From the sequence record NC_047749.1: a stretch of 64,000 bases of DNA, one strand, 5' to 3'. Position 1 is the first letter of the stretch. Every line of letters begins with the position of its first letter. The notes under the pieces were generated by a model that saw nothing but the letters and a program-made list of their open reading frames with translations, ran no database searches and had not been told where the DNA came from. Positions 124 through 62,106 of this stretch are shown piece by piece. The translations under genes were made by a program, and so were the position numbers. This DNA comes from Escherichia phage DT571/2.

Positions 124-858
124 TTACGCTACTTTTAATTTCTCAATATATTGTTGTGGGCTGCAACTATATTCTGCGCGCTCCTCCTCGGTCATACCTT
201 CCCAACATAATTGCAAGCGGTCGGCTAGGAACTGATAATCATTATCATCTTCAAGAGATTCATCAATAAAGGTTTCGCCGATCAATGTGACGCCTATTGA
301 TAGAATATCGTTAACGGCTTGCGCGTCCAGCGTTTTAAATCCATATGCCGCCGCCGCTGATAATACGCCTTTATGATCATCAATCATCGTGAAATCAGCG
401 TTCGGATATAGCTGTTTGAATAGCTCAAAATAATGGCTTTTATATATAGCGTCTTTACTGTGGTATATTTCGCTAACCTTATCAGCCGTAAAATATTTGT
501 GAAGTGTATCGCGGGAAAATACGCGGATATTGCTATTCCCACGCCCTCGCAGACCTTGTTTGCGCAAATAATAATAATCCGACTTACTCATCAGGCGAGC
601 GGTGCAAATAATGTTTAACGTGTTGGCGTCATTCATGCATTGGCGCATATAGGTAACGAGCGGCAAAAGCGTATCCTGCATTATTAACTCATGTTTGCAC
701 GCTTCATTTTTATACTTATTTAAATCTAAATCGCCTTCAATATCAAAGCAAGGCGCTACACGGTGGGCGGAGTTAATGATCGTGCCGTCCAGATCCCAAA
801 TCATTACGCGGGAAATATGCGGGTAATTGCGGGAAATATTCTTTTTATCTTGATTCAT
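124..858 (-). CDS. dmp: 5'-deoxyribonucleotidase, HAD superfamily (T5 Dmp-like)
   Basis: 244-aa ORF; HAD motif I DxDGT (MIWDLDGTII) near N-terminus; first gene at left end as in T5. Confidence 0.8.
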   Translation of the reverse strand: MNQDKKNISRNYPHISRVMIWDLDGTIINSAHRVAPCFDIEGDLDLNKYKNEACKHELIMQDTLLPLVTYMRQCMNDANTLNIICTARLMSKSDYYYLRKQGLRGRGNSNIRVFSRDTLHKYFTADKVSEIYHSKDAIYKSHYFELFKQLYPNADFTMIDDHKGVLSAAAAYGFKTLDAQAVNDILSIGVTLIGETFIDESLEDDNDYQFLADRLQLCWEGMTEEERAEYSCSPQQYIEKLKVA

Positions 859-932
859 TTTGTTACGTTCTCCATTAAAGGGATTAAGTTAATTTAATCC
901 AGCCCATACAGTGGGCTGGAGTATTTCAGTCA

Positions 933-1334
933 TTAAAATACCAGACCATAAGCCAAAGCATCAGCGATAACAGTAATATCCTCGCCAGATACACCGGAAC
1001 GAATACCGGCGCATGTAAATACCTTCGCGCTCATTAACTGATCATCAAGACAAGCGGGGCAAGGCGCGACAACTGCGAAAGCTAAACCAGCTTTTGCGGC
1101 GTCAATAATAGTCGTTTCTTGTTTCATCGTATCAATGTAAACGCCTTTCGCCTTGATGCGGCTAGATAGCTTGCCCGTGGTGTAGGCGAAAGTAGTGATC
1201 TGTAGCGCCTCATTAAATTCGATTAAGTCATCAACAACGTGCCCCGCCTCGACGTGATAGCGCTCACCGGTAGAATAAACTAGGACGATTGCAGACTGCG
1301 CGCGATCGAATGGGATACGGTTGTAAGTAGTCAT
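933..1334 (-). CDS. pre-early protein, A2-like by size and position
   Basis: 133-aa ORF between dmp and A1; no motif recognised. Confidence 0.55.
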   Translation of the reverse strand: MTTYNRIPFDRAQSAIVLVYSTGERYHVEAGHVVDDLIEFNEALQITTFAYTTGKLSSRIKAKGVYIDTMKQETTIIDAAKAGLAFAVVAPCPACLDDQLMSAKVFTCAGIRSGVSGEDITVIADALAYGLVF

Positions 1335-1403
1335 GCGTATAACTCCAATTAATTTAATAAACTTTTATGGCGGCGGTATATTTCGCCCGCCCGCCTGATT
1401 TAT

Positions 1404-3068
1404 TTACGCGAAAAATTTGCCGTTTTTAAAGTCGATTAACGTGCGCTGCCCGTTTGCATATGTAATTACATGCGTTTGCGTCCAGCTTGATGCGCCGACG
1501 TTGTAGCCCATATCGAGGCTGCCCGATACGCCAGCAGTATATACGCCGCCGTAAATGCTGGCGGTATGGGTGTGCCCCGTGTTTAATTTGCCCAACTTTT
1601 TAAATTGCTTCGGATTGCCGCGGCTCCCGTTGATGCCGTTGTGACCGTGTACGCCGCACTCAATGCCTGCAATCTTGAATGATTGATCAGTCGTTAGGAA
1701 TATGGCGTTAAACTCACAGCCTGCAACCTTGCGCAGCGCATAATCCAGCACGTTGAAAGTATCGTCATTTTCTGCAATAGCTCCATAGATCGCGGCGTTG
1801 AGGCGGTGATATAGCTCTGCGTTTGCTGGATCGTCTTTAATGTTAGCGTTGCGATCATCCAGCCAACGGGATAACGCCAGATCGTGGTTTGACTCAACAA
1901 TGATTGTTTGCGAGAAATCGCGCTCCATTGATTCCAATACACGCCCCGTGTCGATAAGATCATCTAAAACCTTATCACGTCCGGCGGCGTACTGTTTTGC
2001 TAGGAATACGCCAGATGCGCGATTGTGGTGGTTGCGTGATGTAAAGTCATGCACATCATGCACGAACTGATATTTAGGTTTAAGAATATCAAGCAAACTA
2101 TTTTCGCCCGCCCATGACGCTTCAGCACACGCCTTATCTAATTTTTCAGCGTGCACGTCGCCATACTGTAAACCTAAAACATGCCCCGATGTTTCATAAC
2201 ATCCGGCGGGAGTGGCGCAAATATTCAAATCATAAAAAACGCCGGTTTCATCCATCGTCTCAAGCTGGCGAACAAAAAATGCCCCGTCCTCGTCAAACTC
2301 GACAATCAGCGCGCCAAAGTTATGTAACGCTTCGGCCTTTTGCCCTGCTTTCTGCTGAATGTAGTTTTTTAGCGTTGCCGCTCCCGTTGAGTACATACGG
2401 CGCACTACTTCACCTTTGAGCGCTGGAACGCTTTCTGCGGTGATTTTAGCTGCTCCAATTGCCAAACCTTCAAGATCAAGCGCTGTTGCAGTCTCAGCGA
2501 ATCCAGAAAGCGGGTAGTCTGCCGTTGGCAAAACATTAATCTCAGCCATGAAAGCAAAGCGGCGACTATTTAAAAACACGTTTTTATTACAGATATATTT
2601 ATCAAAAGCGGAATCATATTTGATCCCGTCCGCACCTTCTCCATTCTGGAATCCTTTTTTGTTATAAATGAACTTGCTAACCAGCAAATCAGCGCCGATA
2701 AATTGGGCGTAATGTTCAAGTGAGGCTAAAAAGTTTTTATGCGGGAACGTGTTGTTCTGGATTGATGTTATAATGAAGCGTTTGCCCTGCTTTACTTCCC
2801 ACTGTTCAACCGTGCTAGAAATAATTCCCGCCGCCTCTGGGCGCTCGTCGTTTTTAACGGCTTTTGATGCTTTCGCCTCTTTTGGTTTCGCTGGTTTGTT
2901 TGCTTCCAGCCAATCACAAATTGCGGTCGAATGTTTTGCCGTATCGTACACCGCTTTTGATATATCGTCGCAGACTTCCAATCTAGTAGCGCGCAGACGT
3001 TTACCGTAAAAATTAAAATCAGCGGCCAGCTTCAGGATAACGGTTTGTTTTTCTGCGGAAATAACCAT
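1404..3068 (-). CDS. A1: pre-early protein A1-like, calcineurin-type metallophosphoesterase (probable nuclease)
   Basis: 554-aa ORF; phosphoesterase motifs GDVHAE, VESNHD, GVHGH, GHTHT; size and position match T5 A1. Confidence 0.8.
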   Translation of the reverse strand: MVISAEKQTVILKLAADFNFYGKRLRATRLEVCDDISKAVYDTAKHSTAICDWLEANKPAKPKEAKASKAVKNDERPEAAGIISSTVEQWEVKQGKRFIITSIQNNTFPHKNFLASLEHYAQFIGADLLVSKFIYNKKGFQNGEGADGIKYDSAFDKYICNKNVFLNSRRFAFMAEINVLPTADYPLSGFAETATALDLEGLAIGAAKITAESVPALKGEVVRRMYSTGAATLKNYIQQKAGQKAEALHNFGALIVEFDEDGAFFVRQLETMDETGVFYDLNICATPAGCYETSGHVLGLQYGDVHAEKLDKACAEASWAGENSLLDILKPKYQFVHDVHDFTSRNHHNRASGVFLAKQYAAGRDKVLDDLIDTGRVLESMERDFSQTIIVESNHDLALSRWLDDRNANIKDDPANAELYHRLNAAIYGAIAENDDTFNVLDYALRKVAGCEFNAIFLTTDQSFKIAGIECGVHGHNGINGSRGNPKQFKKLGKLNTGHTHTASIYGGVYTAGVSGSLDMGYNVGASSWTQTHVITYANGQRTLIDFKNGKFFA

Positions 3069-3165
3069 AATATTAAAACTCCATTAAAGGGATTAAGAAC
3101 GTTTGTTATTGGCAAATATTGCCAAATATAACGCTGCTTATTAACAGCGTTATAATTTGCAATAC

Positions 3166-3411
3166 TTAACTGATCGGCATCAGGCTAGAACTAACACCAC
3201 AAACAACGGCGGTAATAAAACAAAATAAGCCTAAACGCTTTGCTAACTTTGATTTGCGTTTAAAGTAATATGAATCCAGATCATTCTGGAAATAAGCGAA
3301 CAATAATGAGGCCGCTACAATAAATAAACCTAGAATTAACGATTCAGTGGGATAAAAGATCATTTTAATAATTCCAGTTAAAGGGAAATTATAGTGGGGA
3401 ATATTCCCCAC
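3166..3411 (-). CDS. small membrane protein
   Basis: 81-aa ORF with two hydrophobic segments. Confidence 0.5.
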   Translation of the reverse strand: MGNIPHYNFPLTGIIKMIFYPTESLILGLFIVAASLLFAYFQNDLDSYYFKRKSKLAKRLGLFCFITAVVCGVSSSLMPIS

Positions 3412-3420
3412 TAATTAAAT

Positions 3421-3837
3421 TTATTCACCTGCGGATTGTTTTACTTCATCTGCTACGCCTAGTAATTGCGCTACGGCGTCCAGCGTTTCTAATTTTGCGC
3501 TTTCCAGACTTGCCAGATCGTCGGCGTCTTTGATAATGCCGGAATCAATGGCATGTTTAGCAATAACGCGCACATAATGCGCCTTGCGGATTGAACTACC
3601 GCCGCCAACTTTGCGCGGTTTATCGCTTTTCTGATACGCTTTTGCGCTGGTCAATTTTGAGCGAACAGACACAGGGGAAGTAGCGCCCACTGTTTTGGCG
3701 ATCTCTTTCAGGCCGTCGCTGTTTGCGAACTCTAAACCGTTTTCATTGATTAATTGCTGATACATAGAAACGGCTTTTTGGGTATTTTCTTCATTCCATG
3801 CAAATTTTGCGGATTTTTCGGTTTTAACGTTAGTCAT
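3421..3837 (-). CDS. hypothetical pre-early protein
   Basis: 138-aa ORF, tightly packed in leftward operon. Confidence 0.55.
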   Translation of the reverse strand: MTNVKTEKSAKFAWNEENTQKAVSMYQQLINENGLEFANSDGLKEIAKTVGATSPVSVRSKLTSAKAYQKSDKPRKVGGGSSIRKAHYVRVIAKHAIDSGIIKDADDLASLESAKLETLDAVAQLLGVADEVKQSAGE

Positions 3838-4189: not shown

Positions 4190-4423
4190 GGTATAAACTC
4201 CAGTTATTTGATGGATTGTTCCGCATTACCTGCTAAAAAATAATAACAGGTAATAAGAAAAAATCCGCTCACCGTTAAAATCAATTTAAGGAACTCCACA
4301 CAGGCCGCTATATCCCGTTAGGGGGCGGGGCACATTATGGCAAGTACCGGCCGTCAAATTTTACCAAGTTATCGCTCTTGTTGAATCGGGTACATTTTAA
4401 AGCCTATCGGCTAGGGCGTCAAA

Positions 4424-4594: not shown

Positions 4595-5220
4595 ATCGTC
4601 GTCTCCTTATAAGGTTAATAAGTTTGCCGCCGATGGGCTTTAAAATGCACCTGATTTTTAAAGAGCGCGGCGGTAAACTTTCCGCCGTGTAGTTCGTCAT
4701 TGCCGCCCTACGAGATAAATAATAGGGAATACCCAAAAAAGGTGCAACCTTAATTTTGTAAAGAAATGTAAAGAAAGCAAATACCCGCACCGCGTCCGGC
4801 GATCGCCCAAGTTTAAAGGAAACAGGCGCGCGGATACCATAAAACCGAGCTGATTGGCAAGTAATTTTTTCATTTTTATTTGCCTTGCCCTACTTGACAA
4901 AACTTAAAAAGCTCGTGGTGACGATAAACGGGCTATCCCTTTATGATGGGATACCTGAAAAATTTACCGCGTTGTAGGACGTTTTAGGCCGCTTATCTTC
5001 GATTTAACAAATATTTAACAAAAGCAAAATTGAAAAATAGTTTGAGAAGGTATTGACTTTTTAAAATCAAGACTAAACGAGTTATTTTAAAAAATTAATT
5101 AATTGACTTTTATTTGTTGTTGTGTAGTAGAAAGATAGCAGACTAATAATTGCTAGAATGATAATCATGCTGGTGATTGTAACAGACTGAACTATTAGCA
5201 GACTACTGATCCCGGAAAAT

Positions 5221-5260
5221 CTCATTAGCCAACTAACTATCTCATTAGCCAACTAACTAT
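5221..5260. repeat. 20-bp direct repeat x2 (CTCATTAGCCAACTAACTAT)
   Basis: two identical adjacent copies. Confidence 0.9.
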
Positions 5261-5270
5261 TTCATAAGTT

Positions 5271-5450
5271 ATAATAACTATAAAAATAATCACCGTTAAA
5301 ATAATCACTATAAAAATAATCACCATTAAAATAATAACTATAGAAATAATCACCATTATAATAATCACCATTAAAATAATCACTATAAAAATAATCACCA
5401 TTAAAATAATCACTATAAAAATAATCACCATTATTATAATCACTATAAGA
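5271..5450. repeat. 15-bp tandem repeat, about 12 copies (ATAATCACYRTTAAA)
   Basis: read directly; the 68-aa ORF 5237..5443 is its translation artefact. Confidence 0.9.
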
Positions 5451-5486
5451 AACTATCGGCTTAAGTGAGAACCACTATCATTTAAG

Positions 5487-5568
5487 TTATCCACAACGTT
5501 ATCCACAGCACAAAATGATTTGACACGATAGGCGGCGATATAAAGATTTATCCACAGACTTATCCACA
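5487..5568. promoter_or_regulatory. DnaA-box cluster, 4 perfect TTATCCACA in direct orientation
   Basis: boxes at 5487, 5499, 5548, 5560; two imperfect boxes follow to about 5600. Confidence 0.7.
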
Positions 5569-5872
5569 GGTTATCCTACTGTATATTTATCCAGGGTAAA
5601 AAGATAGTGTTTACAACTGCAATCAATTTTGAGCGGCCTAAAACGCTTTCTAACGAGCTGATCGCTGTAGGGTAATATTAAAGTAAAGCCTTTACCCGTC
5701 GGCCTAGAGGCTTCGCCGTGTTTTGCTCTTTACTGCACCGCTGCGCGGTTAGCATAAAACTAGGTGTTAGGCAAGAAAAATAAAAAGTAAAGTAAACGTT
5801 GCCCCTAGAAAGAAAATAATTTTACCGGTAACATCGAAAGCGGGTAATAATTAACCTAATGTAAAGTTTTGT

Positions 5873-5901
5873 AAGGCCCGCCATAATCAGCGGCCTTTTT
5901 T
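5873..5901 (+). terminator. putative rho-independent terminator
   Basis: stem AAGGCC/GGCCTT with 13-nt loop followed by TTTTTT. Confidence 0.45.
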
Positions 5902-5965
5902 GTTATACTGCCCTTACACCGTTTAAGGACGGTTAAAAATTTCCCGAAAAATTTGGAGGCTTAAA

Positions 5966-6145
5966 ATGGTTATTTTTCGATCTATTCTGGCGGGTATCTT
6001 GGGCGCTATTTTAACTCTATTTGCTACCGCTTACGGTATTCAAGATTCTTATTGCGGTTTAGTAAATACTAAACCTATGGTTATTATTGGCGCGGGTATC
6101 GCTGTTTTTTCTTATTTGCTGGGCTGCATGAATAAAGGAGAATAA
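5966..6145 (+). CDS. small membrane protein (59 aa, not in ORF track)
   Basis: GGAGG SD then ATG; hydrophobic translation MVIFRSILAGILGAILTLFATAYG... Confidence 0.45.
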   Translation: MVIFRSILAGILGAILTLFATAYGIQDSYCGLVNTKPMVIIGAGIAVFSYLLGCMNKGE

Positions 6146-6147
6146 AA

Positions 6148-6360
6148 ATGATCCGCAACGTTTCTCTTGCTCGTTCCAAAGGTTTTAAGCTGGTGGATGT
6201 AAACACGTTCGAGCGTCCTGGTTGTAAAATCGAATATATAGCGCGGAATAAAAACGCTTTCCGCGTTACAGAAAAGAGATTCGATAAACGCGGCAACGTG
6301 ATAGCTGAAACGGTTAAATATTTTGCCACCTTTTACGCGGCCTTTCGTGGGGTATTATGA
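6148..6360 (+). CDS. hypothetical protein
   Basis: 70-aa ORF with AGGAG SD. Confidence 0.5.
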   Translation: MIRNVSLARSKGFKLVDVNTFERPGCKIEYIARNKNAFRVTEKRFDKRGNVIAETVKYFATFYAAFRGVL

Positions 6361-6482
6361 AGAGCGTTGTTATTGTTATCCTTGCAATGGTTGGCGGTTT
6401 TACCACCACCTTGTTTAGAAATGATCCTCTTTTGCTAGGGATCTTTATGCTTTTATCTGGTTATCTGATCGGGAGGTTATAA
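6357..6482 (+). CDS. small membrane peptide (41 aa)
   Basis: ATGA start/stop overlap with upstream ORF; hydrophobic. Confidence 0.35.
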   Translation: MKSVVIVILAMVGGFTTTLFRNDPLLLGIFMLLSGYLIGRL

Positions 6483-6483
6483 A

Positions 6484-6828
6484 ATGGTGATTTATGAAGG
6501 TGATCGCCTTGTTGCTGATTGCCGTCCGGCATTGTTAGCAAACTACTTAAACCAGCTTTCGCCAGTATATAAAGGCGTTATAAATATTTATGAAGGCGGG
6601 GCGCATTATAAGATTAATGCGGTCGTTGCCCGTGAACTAGCGTTTCAATTTTTAACCTTTTCATCTTGCAATATTCAGGTCATGGGTGAGGCGTTAATTG
6701 CAGAAAATGAAGATGATTTTATTAATATCTTTCGCAAGATATGCACCGAGCGCCTGATAATGAAAGGGGCATATATTCAATCCACTGCGGATAGTATTGA
6801 AACGGCTTTTCGAAAGGTGGCACAATGA
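6484..6828 (+). CDS. hypothetical protein
   Basis: 114-aa ORF with GGGAGG SD. Confidence 0.5.
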   Translation: MVIYEGDRLVADCRPALLANYLNQLSPVYKGVINIYEGGAHYKINAVVARELAFQFLTFSSCNIQVMGEALIAENEDDFINIFRKICTERLIMKGAYIQSTADSIETAFRKVAQ

Positions 6829-6966
6829 AGCTATATATTTTCGCGGGTAATGTTGAGGCTGCAAATGATTCCGCTGGTGGCGATAGCGTTCGCCATTATT
6901 GGCAAAATTATATTTACTAGGCGTAATGATCACGGGGCACAACTATCAGGGAGTGCCCCTGATTCT

Positions 6967-6991
6967 CAAATGAGAATCATTCTCATTTGAC
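6967..6991. repeat. 25-bp perfect palindrome TCAAATGAGAAT-C-ATTCTCATTTGA
   Basis: read directly; shares the AATGAGAATCATT core with the downstream 22-bp repeats. Confidence 0.85.
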
Positions 6992-7209
6992 CGCGCCCGC
7001 GATGGTTAGCACACTAATGATTAGGGTGTTACGTGTCGCCTTGTGTGATCGTTAGCGGGCTAACTAATTTTCAAGCCTCCTCCAGATTTGCCCTTGTTTT
7101 AGTATCCCCATCAAAATAAAACGCGTTAGAAAGCGATTCAGGGCGTTTTAGGCCTATATTAGAATTATTCACTGCGTAGGAATACTGTATATTTATACAG
7201 TAGAATAAC

Positions 7210-7292
7210 CTGGGGATAAGTCGGTGGATAACGCTTCAAAATGGCTAGAATTTTGTCAAGGCAAATCGTGCTGTTGATAAGTCTGTGGATAA
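7210..7292. promoter_or_regulatory. DnaA-box cluster in opposite orientation to 5487..5568
   Basis: GTGGATAAC at 7224 and TGTGGATAA at 7284, plus imperfect TGGGGATAA at 7210. Confidence 0.6.
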
Positions 7293-7299
7293 CTTAAAT

Positions 7300-7590
7300 A
7301 ACAGTGTTTCTCACTTCCGTTTTTAAATGCGAATCATTATCATTTGCATTCCACTTCTTAAATGAGAATCATTTCACTTCTTGAATAGTTCTCATTCCCT
7401 TTCTTAAATGAGAATCATTTCACTTCTTGAATAGTTCTCATTTCACTTCTTGAATAGTTCTCATTCCACTTCTTAAATGAGAATCATTCCACTTCTTAAA
7501 TGAGAATCATTCCACCTCTTAAATGAGAATGATTATCATTCGCATTCCACTTCTTAAATGCGAATGATAATCATTCTCATTCGCATTCCG
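7300..7590. repeat. about 10 tandem copies of a 22-bp unit (CACTTCTTAAATGAGAATCATT / CACTTCTTGAATAGTTCTCATT) with flanking short inverted repeats
   Basis: read directly. Confidence 0.85.
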
Positions 7591-7617
7591 GCGAGCAGGG
7601 CAATTGCCCTGCGCTTA

Positions 7618-8350
7618 TGTGCAAATCCGACAATTGCTCCAAGGGTTACGCGAGGGCATGTATGTGCAAATCCGACCCATTTTTTGGTAGTGTGCAAATC
7701 CGACCCCAAAAATTTATAAATTCGTGAGAGTGACAAATCTGTCTCCCAAAAACTCCAGCAATCACGAACTGCGTTCGAATCCTGTGGGGTATGTGCAAAT
7801 CCGACACGGTTTTTCTAGGATTAAGATGTGCGAATCCGATGAAATTTTTGTGACTTCGATGAGAGGGTGTGTGATTGTATAGGTTTGAGGAGAAGATGAG
7901 AGAGCGAGAAAAATTTTGGGGCTAGAAGTGTATGGGCGCAGGATTGGTGCGGAGCACCTGATTTGCGGGGGTTTTGGGGGATAGTGGAGATAATTTGGGG
8001 AAATTTGAGATAGGTGCAGAAAAAGTAAAATTTTATTAGCTAAAGGGGGCAATATAGCTTGACAATTGAAAATTCTTGTGGCTCTAAAAACTCAGGCAAT
8101 CATGGGCCTTCGGCCCGAAATAATGCTGCTATTTTCAGGAGATTATATGTTCCTAAAAACTTAGGCGTTTGTGCAAATCCGACCATAAATTTCTAGAAAC
8201 ACAATGTGCAAATCCGACAGTAATTCCTGGAAATGTGTTTTCAAAAAATGTCTCCTAGAAATAACCGCCCTCCCTATAACCGCCCTCCCTATAACCGGCC
8301 TAGGTATGTAACGTTGGAGGGAAACTGCCCTAGAATATGTGCAAATCCGA
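7618..8350 (+). repeat. dispersed co-oriented 14-mer TGTGCAAATCCGAC, 8 copies
   Basis: copies at 7618, 7663, 7691, 7792, 7827 (variant), 8170, 8205, 8338; several preceded by CTAGAA. Confidence 0.85.
8261..8297. repeat. 15-bp tandem repeat x2.5 (ATAACCGCCCTCCCT)
   Basis: read directly. Confidence 0.85.
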
Positions 8351-9082: not shown

Positions 9083-9809
9083 TCTTTCTAGCCTTTAGAT
9101 AGATTCCTTTAGATGCTAGATAGATATATGTAGCAAGGAATGAAGATGTAGATCCTGTTTCTTCAAGAGTAATAGATCCTTTTGCATAACGCTTAGTTCT
9201 AGGAGCCTGGTTAAGCACAAGTGCAGTGAGACTACCTAATCCTAGCGCATCCATTAAACGTTTGAAGGAGTCCTTTTCATCGTGGATAGCATATAGAATG
9301 TAATCTTCCGCTGTAGTTAGTTCTATATCGCGATGATGTGCCACTGCAATCCGTGCTACTACAGCTCCAATCGTTCTATAAATATCTTCAAACGTAATGC
9401 TAGTTTCAAAAGCTAATGCTGGAAGATGATCGAACTTACATTTCTTAGGCGGAATAAGAAGTTGTTCAGGATAAGCTTCTAGTGCCTGACGAACGTTTGC
9501 TTCTGGGTATGTTGGCAAAGGTTCATCTATAATAACATGTAAGAAATTAGCTCTGTGTCCTTTAGCAGTTGGATCTAAAGACTTCAATACTTTGTTCATA
9601 TCTACGTATGAATACGCTAGATCTGCTTGTGGGGCATTAATATCAAACTTAATCTTCTTACCCTCCCATTTAGCAGGGAACATCTCACAAACAAACATTA
9701 CTGCATGTTTAACCTCTGGCTCCAGCTCTGATAGACATTTGTGATCTGCTGTTACTGCTAGAGCGAGAATATTCTTAAATTTATTAGCTTCTTCAATCAT
9801 ATATCCCAT
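9069..9809 (-). CDS. hypothetical protein
   Basis: 246-aa ORF. Confidence 0.55.
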   Translation of the reverse strand: MGYMIEEANKFKNILALAVTADHKCLSELEPEVKHAVMFVCEMFPAKWEGKKIKFDINAPQADLAYSYVDMNKVLKSLDPTAKGHRANFLHVIIDEPLPTYPEANVRQALEAYPEQLLIPPKKCKFDHLPALAFETSITFEDIYRTIGAVVARIAVAHHRDIELTTAEDYILYAIHDEKDSFKRLMDALGLGSLTALVLNQAPRTKRYAKGSITLEETGSTSSFLATYIYLASKGIYLKARKNVTI

Positions 9810-10138
9810 GCCTGCTGACTATTATCACTAACTTGTGTCTTTTTCTCTCTTCGTGGTTTAAAAGTTCCTGTAGTATTACTTTTACTAGGTTCTAATTTAT
9901 ACCACAGCATTCCTAGCTGGTTAACCATATGAGCAACATTTCTAGGGGTCAATGGCGGTAGGGATTCACAGTTTGATATCTCCCTTAATATATTAAATAG
10001 TTCTGCCTCTTTAGCTTTATTGTTTACTACCACCACGTACTCTAATGTTTCTACCTCAGAATCCTCATCCTTATAGTAGAGGCTAAGAGTAATTAAATTC
10101 TCCCCAGCAGGGGCTATTTTTGTTTTACCAAATATCAT
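9797..10138 (-). CDS. hypothetical protein
   Basis: 113-aa ORF. Confidence 0.5.
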   Translation of the reverse strand: MIFGKTKIAPAGENLITLSLYYKDEDSEVETLEYVVVVNNKAKEAELFNILREISNCESLPPLTPRNVAHMVNQLGMLWYKLEPSKSNTTGTFKPRREKKTQVSDNSQQAWDI

Positions 10139-10734
10139 TAACTACCTCTCTTATCTTCGTTAAGAGCAGCTCCTAGTGCTTCCATAATTGCATCTTCTAT
10201 ACTTCCATGCTTACTAGGATTGCTTAAGTGAATAGTATATGAGTTCCTAGAAACTCCAGAGTCCACAGGTGCTGCGCTTTTCCTATCAGACTCAAAAGCT
10301 TCTTGGGTATGTTTCAACTGTACAGAAGGCCCATAGTCTTCCCCAACTCGATAGGACTGATTAGACGACAGCGTACCACCGCAGGGAACATTGTGCAAAT
10401 CCGATGGATTATTTAATAGTGCAATACCACCTCTTGGCCACGAGTCACTAACATGAGTACTAGGACGGTTAACCTCAGTCTTCACGAGTTTATAACCAGC
10501 ATCTATTAATGCATTAATAAGGTTATCAGCTGGAATGCGAGCCTTGCCAAAAATCTCACGAGCGTTGTTGAGCCTACCTTCAAAACCTTTACATGCTCTA
10601 ATATTAGTGTGTGCAAAGGTTAGCTTCATAGATTTGAATTGTACAGTAGCAGTTAAATCTTTAAAGCTATAATCCCACGTATTCAGTTCATGATCTGGTA
10701 CTACTTGAATAGATTGCTGTGCATATAAAGTCAT
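10138..10734 (-). CDS. hypothetical protein
   Basis: 198-aa ORF; contains one copy of the 14-mer at 10393. Confidence 0.55.
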   Translation of the reverse strand: MTLYAQQSIQVVPDHELNTWDYSFKDLTATVQFKSMKLTFAHTNIRACKGFEGRLNNAREIFGKARIPADNLINALIDAGYKLVKTEVNRPSTHVSDSWPRGGIALLNNPSDLHNVPCGGTLSSNQSYRVGEDYGPSVQLKHTQEAFESDRKSAAPVDSGVSRNSYTIHLSNPSKHGSIEDAIMEALGAALNEDKRGS

Positions 10735-41975: not shown

Positions 41976-42014
41976 ACCCAGGCCTTCTGTGTTGTCAGTC
42001 TAGTTTTTGGCCAC

Positions 42015-42212
42015 TTAAGTTCTCAGCAGAATATCTATTGAGGTACTTAGTTCATTATAATTGAAGGGCCGATTTGGATTTGAGGTTACAATTTTCCACG
42101 CTAGGGTAGTCTTAGGACTATCTTCCCCTTCCTTACGTGTAATCATATTAGCAGCACTCAATGAGGTATGATGAATTTTAGTTTTTCGGCGTAGATGTAC
42201 AACGTTTCCCAT
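42015..42212 (-). CDS. small hypothetical protein
   Basis: ATG immediately after phoH stop; the longer track ORF 42015..42281 overlaps phoH. Confidence 0.4.
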   Translation of the reverse strand: MGNVVHLRRKTKIHHTSLSAANMITRKEGEDSPKTTLAWKIVTSNPNRPFNYNELSTSIDILLRT

Positions 42213-42213
42213 A

Positions 42214-42975
42214 CTACACCTTCCCCATGTCTTTAAAAATATCGTAGAATGCTTTAGACTCAGCAGAACGAACGTTATCAATCAATTCGATCATTGAGAA
42301 TGGGGCATTTTCATACTTCTCATAAACTTCCATAAGAAGTGCTAGACCTGAGTCACCTTTAATGTCTTTTTGGGCTATATCTCCGCAGATAATTAAACGG
42401 CAGTCTTGTCCTACACGAGTTAGGAGACAAACCATTGCCTCAACGGAAATATTCTGAGCTTCATCGACAATTACATAGGAGTTGTTGAAAGTTCTGCCAC
42501 GAGCATGTTCTATAGCCAAAAATTTAATTTTCTGACGTTCGACATATCCCTTATAGGCGTGATCACCGATGGCCCATTTCATACCATCAGCTATTGGCTC
42601 CAACCAAGGCTCTAGCTTTTCTGCTAGATCACCAGGAAGCATACCAAGAGACTTACCTAGAGGTTCATTAGGACGGACGAGAATCACTTGCTCAATATCT
42701 GAGTGAATGTCTACGAGTTCCTGAGCTGCAAGAACGGACGGAATAAAGGTTTTGCCAGTACCTGGCTCACCGATACCCACAGTCACTGTGTTGTTCTTGA
42801 TCATATTGATATATGATTTTTGCTCGCGGTTTTTACCTACTAGGGATTTAGCAACTGGGTTGACGTAATCATTAGAAAAATCAGCCTGAATTACGTTACT
42901 CTCATATTTGTTGCCACGCTTTCTTGAACCATTGCGGTTCTCTCTTTTTTGACGTGCTTTTCCCATAAATAACAC
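42214..42975 (-). CDS. phoH: PhoH-like ATPase
   Basis: 253 aa; Walker A GEPGTGKT and PhoH blocks. Confidence 0.85.
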   Translation of the reverse strand: MLFMGKARQKRENRNGSRKRGNKYESNVIQADFSNDYVNPVAKSLVGKNREQKSYINMIKNNTVTVGIGEPGTGKTFIPSVLAAQELVDIHSDIEQVILVRPNEPLGKSLGMLPGDLAEKLEPWLEPIADGMKWAIGDHAYKGYVERQKIKFLAIEHARGRTFNNSYVIVDEAQNISVEAMVCLLTRVGQDCRLIICGDIAQKDIKGDSGLALLMEVYEKYENAPFSMIELIDNVRSAESKAFYDIFKDMGKV

Positions 42976-43041
42976 TCCTATAGTGTACTTTGCTTCTAAC
43001 AGAGGATCAACAAAAGATCTTGTTTATCAACTTACAAATAT

Positions 43042-43070
43042 ATTATACCAGTATATACAGTAAAAAGCAA
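43042..43070 (-). promoter_or_regulatory. T5-early-type promoter for the phoH-nrdA operon
   Basis: RC of TTGCTT-17-TATAAT. Confidence 0.55.
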
Positions 43071-43207
43071 CTACAATTTTAAATAAGCCTATGATATTGC
43101 ATTTAAATAAAAAATTTGCTTGCTTATAAAGGTAAAAGTATGATACTAGATAATCATTTATTTATACGCGAAATACTACAGTATTAGATGGCGAAAGAAA
43201 AATTTAA

Positions 43208-43236
43208 TTGACATAGTGGGTAATATTTAGTATAAT
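43208..43236 (+). promoter_or_regulatory. consensus sigma70 promoter TTGACA-17-TATAAT
   Basis: perfect -35 and -10 hexamers with 17-bp spacer upstream of nrdD. Confidence 0.65.
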
Positions 43237-43370
43237 AAGTGTAAAAATTCTGAGGAGAAAACTAACCCACAGTAACTACTGTAAAGAGTAGAACTGTCAG
43301 TACAGAAGTTTTAACGGGGGTATAGAGGTCCTCGGTACTGTAGCTACAAAATTTATAGAGGAAATAATTA

Positions 43371-45197
43371 ATGACAGAGAATGAATTAATTGAGAATTGC
43401 AAAGGTCTGCTCACTCTAACTGCGGATAAAGACTTACAACATAATAATGCTAATAAGCCTAGTGAGATGTTCCATACTCAAAGAGACTTATTGGCCGGAG
43501 AAATCAACAAGTATCTAGTATCGCAGGAATTACCCAAACATCTATTAGACGCCCATAATCTAGGTAAGATACACATTCATGATATGGATTACAGAGCACA
43601 GGGGTACACTAACTGTTGCTTAGTAGACCTTGGTGGCATGCTGAAGAATGGTACTAAAATTGGTAATGCAAATATTGAAACTCCTAAATCCATAACTACT
43701 GCATGTGCAATCACTGCTCAGATTATTGCACAAGTATCTGGTGCTCAGTATGGTGGCACCTCTATTGATCGTATCGACGAGGTTCTAGCCCCGTATGTCA
43801 GAAAGTCTTACAATAAACATCTGGGTCGTGGTCTACGTTGGCTCAAGGATGAAAGAAAAGCTGCCGTGTACGCTACTGAGCTTACTGAAAAAGAGTGTTA
43901 TGATGCATTCCAAGCCCTAGAGTATGAAACTAATTCATTATTTAACTCTAACGGACAGACTCCTTTTGTTACGCTTGGCTTTGGGCTAGGACAGGGGTGG
44001 GAGGAAAGGATGATTCAGAAAGCCATCCTCCAAAATCGTATTAAAGGTTTAGGTGCTGCTGAGTCAACCCCTATCTTCCCTAAACTAGTATTCTCAGTTA
44101 AAGAAGGATTAAATAAAAATCCAGGCGATCCTAACTACGATATAAAACAGCTAGCACTTGAGTGTTCTGCTACCCGTATGTACCCGGACTATTTAAGTTA
44201 CGAGAAAGTTGTAGCTGTTACTGGTGATTTTAAAGCTCCTATGGGTTGTCGTAGTTTTTTATCTGCTATCCCCTCTGGAGAAATTGCAGGGCGTAATAAT
44301 TTAGGTGTAGTGTCTATCAATCTACCTATGGTTGCTGCTGAGGCAGATGGAGTTTTTGAAGATTTCTGGGATATTCTAGACAAATATGTGGATGAGGCTT
44401 TTGAAGCACATGACTTCTTCTTAAACAGACTGAAGAAAGTTAAGGCTAAACAAGCCCCTATTCTTTATATGCACGGTGGTTTTGGTGTACGTTTAGATGG
44501 GGAAGAGTATGTATGGCCTATTTTTGAAGGTAGATCCTCTGTATCTCTTGGGTATATTGGGGTCTATGAGATGTGTCAAATAATGTTTAGTTTACCACAG
44601 ACTCATAGGGACTGTATTGAATTTACAGAGGAGGTTCTCACTCACCTAAAAAATCGTTGCGAAGTTAAAGCTAATGAGACTAATCTTGGGTTTAGCTTGT
44701 ATGCAACTCCTAGTGAGTCTCTATGTAATCGCTTTAATAAACTACTGGAACGTAGGTTCCCTGAGTATTCTTGGCTAACAGATAAAGGTTATCTCACTAA
44801 TAGTCATCATTTGGACGTAAGGGAGAAGGTAGCTCCAGATACTAAATTTGAGTATGAAGCTCATTTCACCAAAATAGCTAATGGTGGTAATATATCATTT
44901 GTGGAACTACCACAAATGAAAAAGTTCCATAAAGCTCTTGAATACGTAGTAGATAAGGGACTAGAATGTAGCCATTATATTGGTGTTAATATACCGATTG
45001 ATGAGTGCTTCAACTGTGGGTATATGGGTGAATCTGTTGCCTCTGAACGTGGGTTTGTATGTCCGAGTTGTGGATCTGAAGAAATAGAGGTTACACGTAG
45101 GGTTTGCGGGTACCTGGGGTCCCCGGGCAGTAGGCCTTTCAATTCTGGGAAACAAAAAGAAGTGCTTGGTAGAGTAAAACACTTAAATCTTAAGTAA
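43371..45197 (+). CDS. nrdD: anaerobic ribonucleoside-triphosphate reductase
   Basis: 608 aa; C-terminal glycyl-radical motif RVCGYLG and zinc ribbon CFNCGY...CPSCGS. Confidence 0.9.
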   Translation: MTENELIENCKGLLTLTADKDLQHNNANKPSEMFHTQRDLLAGEINKYLVSQELPKHLLDAHNLGKIHIHDMDYRAQGYTNCCLVDLGGMLKNGTKIGNANIETPKSITTACAITAQIIAQVSGAQYGGTSIDRIDEVLAPYVRKSYNKHLGRGLRWLKDERKAAVYATELTEKECYDAFQALEYETNSLFNSNGQTPFVTLGFGLGQGWEERMIQKAILQNRIKGLGAAESTPIFPKLVFSVKEGLNKNPGDPNYDIKQLALECSATRMYPDYLSYEKVVAVTGDFKAPMGCRSFLSAIPSGEIAGRNNLGVVSINLPMVAAEADGVFEDFWDILDKYVDEAFEAHDFFLNRLKKVKAKQAPILYMHGGFGVRLDGEEYVWPIFEGRSSVSLGYIGVYEMCQIMFSLPQTHRDCIEFTEEVLTHLKNRCEVKANETNLGFSLYATPSESLCNRFNKLLERRFPEYSWLTDKGYLTNSHHLDVREKVAPDTKFEYEAHFTKIANGGNISFVELPQMKKFHKALEYVVDKGLECSHYIGVNIPIDECFNCGYMGESVASERGFVCPSCGSEEIEVTRRVCGYLGSPGSRPFNSGKQKEVLGRVKHLNLK

Positions 45198-59538: not shown

Positions 59539-62106
59539 TTGAAAATCGCAGTAGTTGATAAAGCTCTAAACAACACTCGTTACGATAAACATTTCCAGCT
59601 ATACGGCGAGGAAGTTGATGTATTCCATATGTGTAACGAGAAGTTGTCCGGTCGTTTGCTCAAAAAGCATATTACTATCGGGACCCCGGAAAACCCATTT
59701 GACCCGAATGATTATGATTTTGTTATACTGGTAGGTGCCGAACCTTTCCTGTACTTTGCGGGTAAGAAAGGTATTGGTGATTATACTGGTAAACGTGTAG
59801 AGTATAATGGATATGCTAACTGGATTGCTAGTATCAGCCCAGCCCAGCTACACTTTAAACCTGAAATGAAACCAGTTTTTGATGCAACAGTAGAGAATAT
59901 CCACGATATTATCAATGGTCGTGAGAAGATTGCAAAAGCTGGTGATTACCGTCCTATTACTGACCCCGACAAGGCAGAAGAATATATCAAGATGGTGTAT
60001 AATATGGTTATCGGACCTGTCGCATTCGACTCCGAAACCTCAGCACTATACTGTCGAGATGGTTATCTGCTTGGTGTTTCTATGTCTCACCAAGAGTATC
60101 AGGGTGTATATATCGATTCTGATTGTCTTACAGAAGTTGCAGTATATTATCTCCAGAAAATTCTGGATAGTGAAAACCATACTATTGTTTTTCACAACTT
60201 GAAGTTTGATATGCACTTTTATAAGTACCATCTGGGACTTACTTTTGATAAAGCACATAAAGAACACAGGCTCCATGATACCATGTTGCAGCATTATGTT
60301 CTAGATGAACGTCGTGGTACTCATGGCTTGAAATCTCTAGCAATGAAGTATACCGATATGGGTGACTATGACTTCGAACTAGATAAGTTCAAAGATGATT
60401 ACTGCAAAGCACATAAAATCAAGAAAGAAGATTTCACCTATGATTTGATTCCATTTGATATTATGTGGCCTTACGCTGCAAAAGATACAGATGCTACCCT
60501 ACGTTTACACAACTTCTTTTTACCAAAAATTGAGAAGAATGAAAAACTTTGCAGTCTGTATTACGATGTTCTAATGCCTGGTTGTGTATTCCTACAGCGT
60601 GTCGAAGATCGTGGCGTACCTATCTCTATTGATCGTTTGAAAGAAGCTCAGTATCAATTGACTCATAATTTGAATAAAGCCCGTGAGAAACTGTACACTT
60701 ATCCAGAAGTTAAACAGCTAGAACAAGATCAGAATGTAGCATTTAACCCGAACTCTGTTAAACAACTTCGTGTTCTTCTATTCGATTATGTTGGTTTGAC
60801 TCCAACTGGTAAGTTAACGGATACTGGTGCAGATTCTACAAACGCAGAAGCTCTGAATGAACTGGCAACCCAGCATCCGATTGCTAAAACTCTTCTAGAG
60901 ATTCGTAAGCTGACTAAGCTGATCTCTACTTACGTTGAGAAGATTCTACTGAGTATTGATGCAGATGGTTGCATTCGTACTGGTTTCCATGAACATATGA
61001 CTACTTCTGGTCGTCTGAGTTCTTCTGGTAAACTGAACCTGCAACAGCTACCTCGTGATGAATCTATCATTAAGGGTTGTGTAGTTGCACCACCTGGATA
61101 CCGTGTAATCGCATGGGACTTAACAACTGCGGAAGTTTATTATGCTGCTGTTCTATCTGGTGATAGAAATATGCAACAAGTATTTATTAACATGAGAAAT
61201 GAACCTGATAAATACCCTGACTTCCACTCTAACATCGCCCACATGGTATTTAAATTGCAATGTGAACCTCGTGATGTTAAAAAGTTATTCCCAGCTCTGC
61301 GTCAAGCAGCTAAGGCAATTACCTTTGGTATTTTGTACGGTTCTGGCCCGGCTAAAGTAGCACATTCTGTTAACGAAGCATTGCTAGAACAAGCAGCCAA
61401 AACTGGGGAACCATTTGTTGAATGTACTGTTGCAGATGCTAAAGAGTACATTGAGACTTACTTTGGTCAATTCCCACAGCTTAAGCGTTGGATTGATAAG
61501 TGCCACGATCAGATCAAGAATCATGGATTTATCTATAGTCACTTTGGTCGTAAACGTCGTCTGCATAATATCCACTCCGAAGACCGTGGTGTTCAGGGTG
61601 AAGAAATCCGTTCTGGATTTAACGCAATCATTCAGTCTGCTTCTTCTGATAGTCTCCTTTTAGGTGCTGTAGATGCAGATAATGAGATCATTTCTCTTGG
61701 CCTAGAACAAGAGATGAAGATTGTTATGCTGGTTCATGACTCCGTAGTTGCTATTGTTCGTGAAGACTTGATTGATCAATACAATGAGATCCTGATTCGT
61801 AATATTCAGAAAGACCGTGGTATCAGTATTCCTGGCTGTCCAATTGGTATTGATTCAGATTCTGAAGCTGGAGGTTCTCGTGACTATTCTTGTGGTAAGA
61901 TGAAGAAACAGCACCCATCAATCGCTTGTATTGATGATGACGAATATACTCGTTACGTTAAAGAAATGCTTCTTGATTCTGAATTCGAGTATAAGAAATT
62001 AGCTGCAATGGATAAAGAGCATCCAGACCACAGCAAGTACAAGGATGATAAGTTTATTGCTGTATGTAAAGATCTGGATAACGTGAAAAGGGTTCTCGGT
62101 GCTTAA
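59539..62106 (+). CDS. family A DNA polymerase (T5 DNA polymerase-like, TTG start)
   Basis: 855 aa, the size of T5 Pol; 3'-5' exo motif FDSETSAL and Pol A motifs. Confidence 0.9.
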   Translation: MKIAVVDKALNNTRYDKHFQLYGEEVDVFHMCNEKLSGRLLKKHITIGTPENPFDPNDYDFVILVGAEPFLYFAGKKGIGDYTGKRVEYNGYANWIASISPAQLHFKPEMKPVFDATVENIHDIINGREKIAKAGDYRPITDPDKAEEYIKMVYNMVIGPVAFDSETSALYCRDGYLLGVSMSHQEYQGVYIDSDCLTEVAVYYLQKILDSENHTIVFHNLKFDMHFYKYHLGLTFDKAHKEHRLHDTMLQHYVLDERRGTHGLKSLAMKYTDMGDYDFELDKFKDDYCKAHKIKKEDFTYDLIPFDIMWPYAAKDTDATLRLHNFFLPKIEKNEKLCSLYYDVLMPGCVFLQRVEDRGVPISIDRLKEAQYQLTHNLNKAREKLYTYPEVKQLEQDQNVAFNPNSVKQLRVLLFDYVGLTPTGKLTDTGADSTNAEALNELATQHPIAKTLLEIRKLTKLISTYVEKILLSIDADGCIRTGFHEHMTTSGRLSSSGKLNLQQLPRDESIIKGCVVAPPGYRVIAWDLTTAEVYYAAVLSGDRNMQQVFINMRNEPDKYPDFHSNIAHMVFKLQCEPRDVKKLFPALRQAAKAITFGILYGSGPAKVAHSVNEALLEQAAKTGEPFVECTVADAKEYIETYFGQFPQLKRWIDKCHDQIKNHGFIYSHFGRKRRLHNIHSEDRGVQGEEIRSGFNAIIQSASSDSLLLGAVDADNEIISLGLEQEMKIVMLVHDSVVAIVREDLIDQYNEILIRNIQKDRGISIPGCPIGIDSDSEAGGSRDYSCGKMKKQHPSIACIDDDEYTRYVKEMLLDSEFEYKKLAAMDKEHPDHSKYKDDKFIAVCKDLDNVKRVLGA

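Follow-up and report, generated by a model that had tools for sequence, protein, structure and literature searches.

LexA-operator-like palindromes accompany paired DnaA boxes in the injection-stop inverted repeats of a T5-like coliphage

The locus and its published counterpart

We analysed a 64,000-nucleotide stretch of Escherichia phage DT571/2 (NC_047749.1), hereafter the window, for a pair of oppositely oriented DnaA-box clusters that a model had noticed from the sequence alone (the original prediction). The stretch is the left end of a T5-like coliphage genome of the DT57C type. Positions 5200-7600 are 99.9% identical to the same coordinates of Escherichia phage DT57C (KM979354.1), the first 10.8 kb differ by two substitutions only (6978 and 7169), and the register between the two sequences is lost from about 10803 onward. 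The DT57C record has dmp, A1 and A2 on the minus strand at 124-3837; these three pre-early genes are a hallmark of the first-step-transfer (FST) DNA in T5-like phages. Further to the right, the two clusters bracket four plus-strand open reading frames (ORFs) at 5966-6828, the small rightward operon of the original prediction. These pre-early ORFs are homologous to T5.013-T5.015.

The element is the already published inverted-repeat pair of the T5-like injection-stop region and is rediscovered here, not new in itself. Davison compared 25 T5-like phages, DT57C included, and described two 131-bp inverted repeats within the FST region, IRC-spacer-IRD and IRD'-spacer-IRC', with eight DnaA or DnaA-like boxes in total that are set in pairs with a 3-bp gap and a constant 52-bp spacer (bioRxiv 10.1101/866236). 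The T5 record annotates an injection stop signal (iss) at T5 9140-10149, a feature that covers the distal repeat copy.

The proximal cluster carries perfect TTATCCACA boxes on the plus strand, starting at 5487, 5499, 5548 and 5560, as the original prediction had it. The whole window contains five perfect matches against 0.75 expected, a number reached in none of 100 shuffles. The facing cluster, predicted at 7210..7292, indeed holds four minus-strand boxes (7211-7292); only the one at 7284 is perfect, and the other three were found with one mismatch allowed. Each cluster consists of two box pairs, with 12 bp from start to start within a pair and 61 bp between pairs, a register of 9 + 52 that agrees with the published spacer.

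Both clusters sit in a 132-nt inverted repeat (5463-5594 against 7185-7316) that is 77% complementary and whose copies we call the proximal and the distal arm (Table 1). The distal arm aligns with T5 9341-9551, inside the iss feature, at 93.8% identity. Inverted copies of about 131 bp, paired boxes and iss homology, the three sequence marks of a T5-like iss repeat pair, are all present at this locus. The observation is real and statistically solid, and the DT57C identity, the homology to the T5 iss and the published eight-box description bear out the link to the T5 injection-stop region that had been suggested for it. Relative to T5, the element is the same one at a homologous position, with eight boxes, the 3-bp pair gap and the 61-bp register, and there is no structural difference. 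Compared with other T5-like phages, DT57C has the shortest terminal repeat (8081 bp; 10.1101/866236), the shortest inter-arm distance and four perfect proximal boxes.

Loss of the boxes in relatives had been named as a reason to give up the prediction. Both arms, in inverted orientation, were found in 32 of 32 non-identical relatives, which comprise Tequintavirus and Epseptimavirus genomes (IMG/VR, GenBank) and Klebsiella Sugarlandviruses; their 64 arms were aligned.

Table 1. Arms, motifs, enclosed ORFs and flanking elements at the injection-stop region, in positions of the window
Feature	Position	Strand	Remarks
AT-rich 15-bp tandem array	5271..5450		About 12 copies of ATAATCAC[C/T]AT[T/A]AAA; just outside the proximal arm
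Proximal (left) arm, IRC-spacer-IRD	5463..5596	+	Inverted repeat; in 32/32 relatives; known from the literature; from outside to inside GTGAGAACCACTATCATTTAAG, box pair, spacer, box pair, fifth box-like 9-mer, LexA-type palindrome
DnaA boxes 1 and 2	5487..5507	+	Both TTATCCACA, 3 bp apart
TTGACA, proximal spacer	5520..5525	+	Points inward
DnaA boxes 3 and 4	5548..5568	+	Both TTATCCACA, 3 bp apart
Fifth DnaA-box-like 9-mer	5571..5579	+	TTATCCTAC; 11 bp after box 4, overlaps the palindrome start
Proximal palindrome	5577..5596		TACTGTATATTTATCCAGGG; LexA-operator-like, 21.2 bits
Homolog of the T5 rho-independent terminator (T5 7534-7559), then an extended -10-like element	5862..5917	+	-10-like element TGTTATACT; upstream of the enclosed ORFs
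Enclosed ORF, PHROG 5607	5966-6145	+	Two-transmembrane protein
Enclosed ORF, PHROG 4227	6148-6360	+	Family annotated as endonuclease nicking abasic sites made by host Ung
Enclosed ORF, PHROG 19184	6357-6482	+	
Enclosed ORF, PHROG 4379	6484-6828	+	
Hairpin with Fur-box-like palindrome	6960..6988		TGAGAATCATTCTCA; downstream of the operon
Distal palindrome	7183..7202		TACTGTATATTTATACAGTA, that is TACTGTATA-TT-TATACAGTA; 19/20 consensus positions, 26.3 bits
Distal (right) arm, IRD'-spacer-IRC'	7185..7316	-	Homologous to part of the annotated T5 iss; outer motif GTGAGAAACACTGTTATTTAAG
Box 5-like 9-mer, distal arm	7200-7208	-	
DnaA box 4'	7211-7219	-	TTATCCCCA
DnaA box 3'	7223-7231	-	TTATCCACC
TTGACA, distal spacer	7254-7259	-	Points inward
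DnaA box 2'	7272-7280	-	TTATCAACA
DnaA box 1'	7284-7292	-	TTATCCACA
23-bp repeat and palindrome array	7320..7590		Outside the distal arm
Homolog of the sequence around the T5 major single-strand interruption (7.9% of the genome)	7577..7637		Nick projects to about 7614
TGTGCAAATCCGAC direct repeats (DRD type)	7615..7850		Toward the terminal-repeat boundary, 8081 according to the literature

DnaA-dependent control, one of the functions suggested for the clusters, would correspond to the hypothesis already published for this element: Davison proposed that membrane-bound DnaA holds the DNA at the boxes and that injection stops as a result (10.1101/866236). The other suggestion, a DnaA-dependent replication origin or replication-control element, found no support and is very improbable. 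Clustered same-orientation boxes with strong and weak members are what an origin would offer, and an AT-rich 15-bp array adjoins the proximal arm, the distal arm being flanked instead by 23-bp palindromic repeats. However, T5 origins map around the genome centre, and replication genes reach the cell only with second-step DNA (10.1101/866236). An inverted duplicate combined with a LexA operator is moreover not an origin feature, and the cumulative GC-skew minimum falls near 42-44 kb and not at the arms, where the skew changes only locally and mirrors the small rightward operon. The global minimum (about 42000-44000) comes with a sign change and a change in transcription direction, and this region is a more plausible site for a replication origin than the FST region.

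The E. coli oriC, datA and DARS clusters are also built of same-orientation 9-mers in which strong boxes flank weaker ones, and the distal arm is likewise arranged strong-weak ... weak-strong. The two phage arrays face each other, as the halves of oriC do. They differ from oriC arrays in their spacing (3 bp in the phage, 2 bp in oriC) and in standing 1.6-4 kb apart, and from the chromosomal clusters in belonging to a virulent phage that destroys the host chromosome.

LexA-operator-like palindromes

The original prediction had also pointed to a shared CTGTATATTTAT element in mirrored arrangement. It lies at 5579-5590 and 7185-7196, on the inner side of each cluster and in mirrored positions, and it reads identically on the plus strand at both sites because it forms one half of a palindrome of 20 bp. 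Taken alone as a 12-mer, and allowing one mismatch, CTGTATATTTAT lacks significance, two or more matches turning up in 22 of 100 shuffles; the full 20-mer, a palindrome of the LexA type, is highly significant.

By its sequence, the palindrome is a LexA operator. A weight matrix was built from 18 E. coli SOS boxes (PMC3009722, Table 4), which themselves score 6.6-24.5 bits when each is left out in turn. The distal palindrome exceeds all 18, and the proximal one scores within their range (Table 1). The next-best site in the window reaches 13.9 bits, and the best site of a shuffled window averages 12.5 bits; this third site (60689-60708) is at chance level and was discarded. TACTGTATATTTATACAGTA is one position off the canonical operator TACTGTATATATATACAGTA, and no such match is expected by chance. 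The forms CTGT-N8-ACAG and TACTG(TA)5CAGTA are matched at the level of genuine boxes. Among the relatives, no distal arm falls below 22.6 bits (n = 32), and 28 of the 32 proximal arms reach 18.5 or more.

The same 20-bp form, TACTGTATA-NN-TATACAGTA, is found in the E. coli SOS operators of istR-2/tisAB, umuDC, sbmC and dinD, and the distal palindrome is one position off the istR-2 box (PMC3009722). Unlike SOS operators, the phage palindrome overlaps no recognised promoter, occurs in an obligately lytic phage and is present in two mirrored copies beside DnaA boxes. Some sequences that resemble the consensus are not bound by LexA in vitro.

At their centres (5586-5587 and 7192-7193), the palindromes read either AA or TT, and each arm switches independently of the other: 18 phages have AA on both sides, eight have AA left and TT right, three have TT left and AA right, and three have TT on both sides. 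This pattern fits a putative symmetric dimer site whose centre is free to vary, and since there are no single-step intermediates among the 64 arms, it suggests a flip-flop by template switching at the palindrome. Two more distant phages carry a second LexA-like palindrome in the spacer between the box pairs, roughly where the enterobacterial phages carry TTGACA: Pectobacterium phage DU_PP_V at about 4290-4310 (CTGTATAGGCATACAG) and Vibrio phage IW18 at about 518-535 (CTGTATATTTATACAT).

The text of the Davison 2020 preprint mentions neither LexA, SOS, promoters nor Fur, and gives no LexA or Fur reading and no invariant TTGACA. Full-text literature yielded no link between T5-like phages and LexA boxes and no paper with these 20-mers. 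The earlier work on these repeats by Heusterspreute et al. (1987), Wang et al. (2005) and Davison (2015) lay outside this scope, so that priority is not claimed for the LexA-operator site in each arm, although we could not find it in print.

Conservation and evolution of the arms

The motifs follow a fixed order from outside to inside in the aligned arms: GTGAGAAnCACTnTCATTTAAG; boxes 1 and 2; a spacer with TTGACA; boxes 3 and 4; TTATCCTAC; and the palindrome, TACTGTATA-(AA or TT)-TATACAG. The top-base frequency is highest in the palindrome half-sites (0.99 and 0.98), TTGACA (0.98) and the fifth box-like 9-mer (0.97), followed by DnaA boxes 1-4 (0.85-0.95) and the rest of the spacer (0.65-0.75). 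Conservation is stronger in the palindrome than in the DnaA boxes, as far out as the Vibrio and Proteus relatives.

The 251 boxes vary chiefly at three positions: 29% are changed at position 5, 27% at position 6 (C to A) and 9% at position 3 (A to T). Positions 1, 2, 4, 8 and 9 are changed in at most 4%. The DnaA consensus is TT(A/T)TNCACA (10.1101/866236). Because positions 3 and 5 are its degenerate positions, the changes there fit selection for DnaA recognition, with which they are compatible without proving binding. The C-to-A change at position 6 lies outside the DnaA consensus, yet it is position-specific. In the distal arm, box 2 fits the strict consensus in none of the 32 phages and box 3 in eight, which gives this arm its strong-weak ... 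weak-strong reading.

With a 132-nt inverted repeat that is 77% complementary, pairing of the arms into a cruciform, a single-strand panhandle or an RNA stem comes to mind. We consider such long-range structure hardly tenable. The left and right arms are as alike within one phage (0.747 identity) as between different phages (0.744), and base pairing between the arms was rejected on this ground. Identity is 0.864 among left arms and 0.926 among right arms. Apart from TTGACA, spacer identity is 93% from one right arm to another and only 43% between left and right arms, and the spacer is essentially non-complementary. No gene conversion and no concerted or compensatory change between arms was found in the aligned arms of the 32 relatives, and the arms lie 1.6 to about 4 kb apart. 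Rfam gave no match for the arms, only sub-threshold chance matches. The arms share motifs that resemble protein sites rather than a base-paired structure, which argues against a cruciform or panhandle and would make them protein landing pads.

Set against window 5597-7185 and the Tequintaviruses, the Klebsiella Sugarlandviruses have the inner flanks of their two arms exchanged and the enclosed genes in reverse orientation, which indicates that the cassette was inverted with breakpoints in the arm cores. Breakpoints at these places, together with a highly mosaic cassette between conserved arms, are what would be seen if the arms were recombination anchors, i.e. homologous flanks through which co-infecting T5-like phages exchange or invert the cassette. 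This role is distinctly improbable as the main one, as it leaves unexplained the host-consensus motifs, the differences between the arms outside the motifs and the fixed distance of the distal arm to the repeat boundary.

Beyond the aligned relatives, a DnaA-box cluster lies beside the palindrome in Pectobacterium phage DU_PP_V, Proteus phage 1 and Vibrio phages D124 and IW18. Erwinia phage KEY has two perfect copies of the palindrome; the scan called no box cluster there, though DnaA-type boxes flank both copies. The A1 proteins of these five phages are 31-65% identical to that of DT57C. Outside the family, no arm homologs were found in 72,556 plasmids or 5,426 E. coli genomes, and in IMG/VR the composite arm pattern occurs in T5-like contigs only. 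Two phages of Alphaproteobacteria with A1 homologs, Rhizobium phage RHEph10 and Dinoroseobacter phage R5C, carry A1 inside structural or replication modules and have no FST-like non-coding region, and a comparison of LexA sites across a host switch is therefore inapplicable to them.

The distant relatives bear on whether the palindromes and repeats could be targets of phage proteins, with an A2 dimer or A1/A2 recognising them to release or cut the DNA, to restart transfer or to circularise the genome. This idea is Davison's restriction-enzyme model (10.1101/866236). A1 and A2 are needed for second-step transfer and A2 is a DNA-binding dimer (10.1101/866236), which palindromes would suit, and the Fur-like and 23-bp repeats outside the distal arm differ between genera, as expected if they co-evolved with a phage protein. 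Against this, the palindrome and the DnaA boxes stay at the host consensus while A1 falls to 31-41% identity, and no site-specific activity of A1/A2 is reported (10.1101/866236). Phage-encoded recognition is thus improbable. Since the sites stay at the host consensus while the phage proteins diverge, they point to a conserved host protein, rather than A2/A1, as the probable selecting agent.

Enclosed cassette and promoter-like elements

TTGACA is kept in 98% of the 64 arms and points inward in both, in a spacer that is otherwise divergent. A consensus scan and inspection of the alignment by eye revealed no acceptable or conserved -10 element at 16-18 bp from it. A sigma-70 promoter in the arms was considered and dropped; the scan calls none at TTGACA, and with 11 promoter-like sites against 11.7 expected, their total is what chance would give.

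The inward TTGACA could nevertheless belong to a transcriptional insulator or operator, in which the arms act as protein roadblocks or as weak, regulated inward promoters around the variable pre-early cassette. As an insulator, they would keep host RNA polymerase from reading out toward DNA in the entry channel or into the A2-A1 operon; as an operator, they would make cassette expression responsive to host DnaA and the SOS state. In either arm the LexA site always lies inward of the boxes, the distal palindrome is overlapped by a weak promoter-like site (TATACA-16-AATAAT, 9/12 match) whose -35 falls inside it, and a T5 terminator lies just inside the distal arm. Inversion of the segment in Sugarlandviruses means that either arm can face the 3' end of the operon. 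There is, however, no recognisable promoter, and TTGACA lacks a conserved -10. The annotated T5 promoters lie outside the arms, flanking the proximal one at a distance, and the LexA box does not overlap them. Some T5-like phages also lack the proximal arm (10.1101/866236). We regard this explanation as the main rival to the one we favour below, and as doubtful in its own right.

Flanking repeats and the injection-stop point

The arms are embedded in repeats that differ on the two sides. The DT57C record annotates a 'repeat completion protein' (5237-5431, minus strand) whose coding sequence is built wholly of the 15-bp tandem repeat outside the proximal arm and whose translation consists of Ile/Val-rich repeats; it is probably not a gene.

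The array outside the distal arm contains Fur-box-like sites at 7328-7342, 7524-7538 and 7565-7579. The window has five such sites against 0.11 expected, and a separate scan gave four against 0.06 expected. Both a 19-bp consensus and a 7-1-7 consensus, TGATAATnATTATCA, were used, and the sites are candidates by sequence. One to four Fur-like sites lie within 450 nt outside the distal arm in 30 of the 32 relatives, compared with a background of 0.035. Besides the three in the array, sites of the form TGATAATnATTATCA are found at 233-247 and 6971-6985, and another Fur-box-like site at 5156-5171; the first of these is a perfect TGATAATCATTATCA inside the dmp coding sequence.

In T5, the shear point of the FST DNA is located about 156 bp beyond the arm (10.1101/866236), which projects to about 7470 in the window. 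The projected nick is about 300 bp outside the distal arm, and nick, shear point and Fur-like array fall within about 300 bp of one another. More copies of the TGTGCAAATCCGAC repeat occur at 8168-8219 and 10391-10404, beyond the reported boundary at 8081, and these repeats may be connected with packaging or with the way the repeat boundary arises.

Discussion

That T5 injects its DNA in two steps has been known since the 1960s; how its stop signal works is not understood. We tentatively favour the reading, to which we give slightly less than an even chance, that host proteins assemble into a complex at the arms and that this complex marks the end of the DNA injected first, or holds it. To the identity with the published T5 structure, the motif content, the conservation and the position of the arms, all of which are observed, this reading adds protein binding and its consequences.

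The sequence of events could be as follows. Once the left 8 kb has entered, and ahead of all phage protein synthesis, DnaA of the host, and probably LexA too, would load on the arm sites. Each copy would offer a fixed set of them, consisting of two DnaA-box pairs, the fifth box-like 9-mer and an inner consensus LexA operator, and the distal copy would additionally offer the outer Fur-box-like palindromes. A nucleoprotein complex would thereby form on the DNA that entered last, about 0.7 kb inside the terminal-repeat boundary. Located at the membrane, this complex may mark the FST end and help to hold it, acting as the injection-stop signal until A1 and A2 act. Among the candidate proteins, DnaA is the published one, LexA is strongly suggested by the operator-like palindromes and Fur is possible.

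The injection stop occurs without phage protein synthesis (10.1101/866236), which makes a pre-existing host factor the natural candidate. The position of the distal arm supports this reading as well. In loci that end at a terminal repeat, it lies 460-830 bp from the repeat boundary, while the inter-arm distance ranges between 1.6 and about 4 kb.

Several points weigh against a host-protein stop complex. Proteins on DNA that is already inside would be expected to ratchet it inward and not to stop it, and a membrane tether or another extra element is therefore needed. The distal arm, which adjoins the stop point, has the weaker DnaA boxes, and the proximal arm, given its distance from the shear point, could not bring about the stop alone. 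The invariant TTGACA is left unexplained. Symmetric paired arms are awkward for a stop signal and natural for an insulator, which better explains this symmetry, the inward TTGACA and the inner position of the LexA site. Papers of 2023 and 2026 restate the DnaA boxes and call functional studies lacking. Finally, an arm-carrying relative was isolated on E. coli DH5a, a recA1 strain, and LexA cleavage can accordingly not be required for growth.

Stepwise entry in T7 offers a comparison. There too, the leading end enters first and the remainder needs new or recruited machinery, and transcription toward the external DNA matters. In T7, however, RNA polymerase pulls the DNA in and there are no arrays of DnaA and LexA sites, whereas T5 entry depends on A1 and A2, with a pause at a defined cis-acting region.

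A more specific version, possible but on balance unlikely, is that the arms are composite landing pads for DnaA, LexA and perhaps Fur, with the LexA operator as the most conserved non-coding element of the FST DNA across the Demerecviridae. Beyond the published description, this analysis reads the inner palindromes as LexA operators, places Fur-like sites at the projected stop point, notes the invariant TTGACA and gives evidence that favours motifs over pairing. The hypothesis of DnaA alone is thereby widened to several host proteins in a form that can be tested directly. Of a T5-like genome, the FST region alone is exposed to host defences early in infection, and its architecture thus matters for phage engineering and for studies of defence systems. 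If the composite reading is true, a strictly lytic phage would read or exploit the SOS response, the replication initiator and the iron status of its host to hold its FST DNA or to gate its pre-early programme, and the 60-year-old question of the T5 injection stop would become one of a multi-protein host complex and not of DnaA alone.

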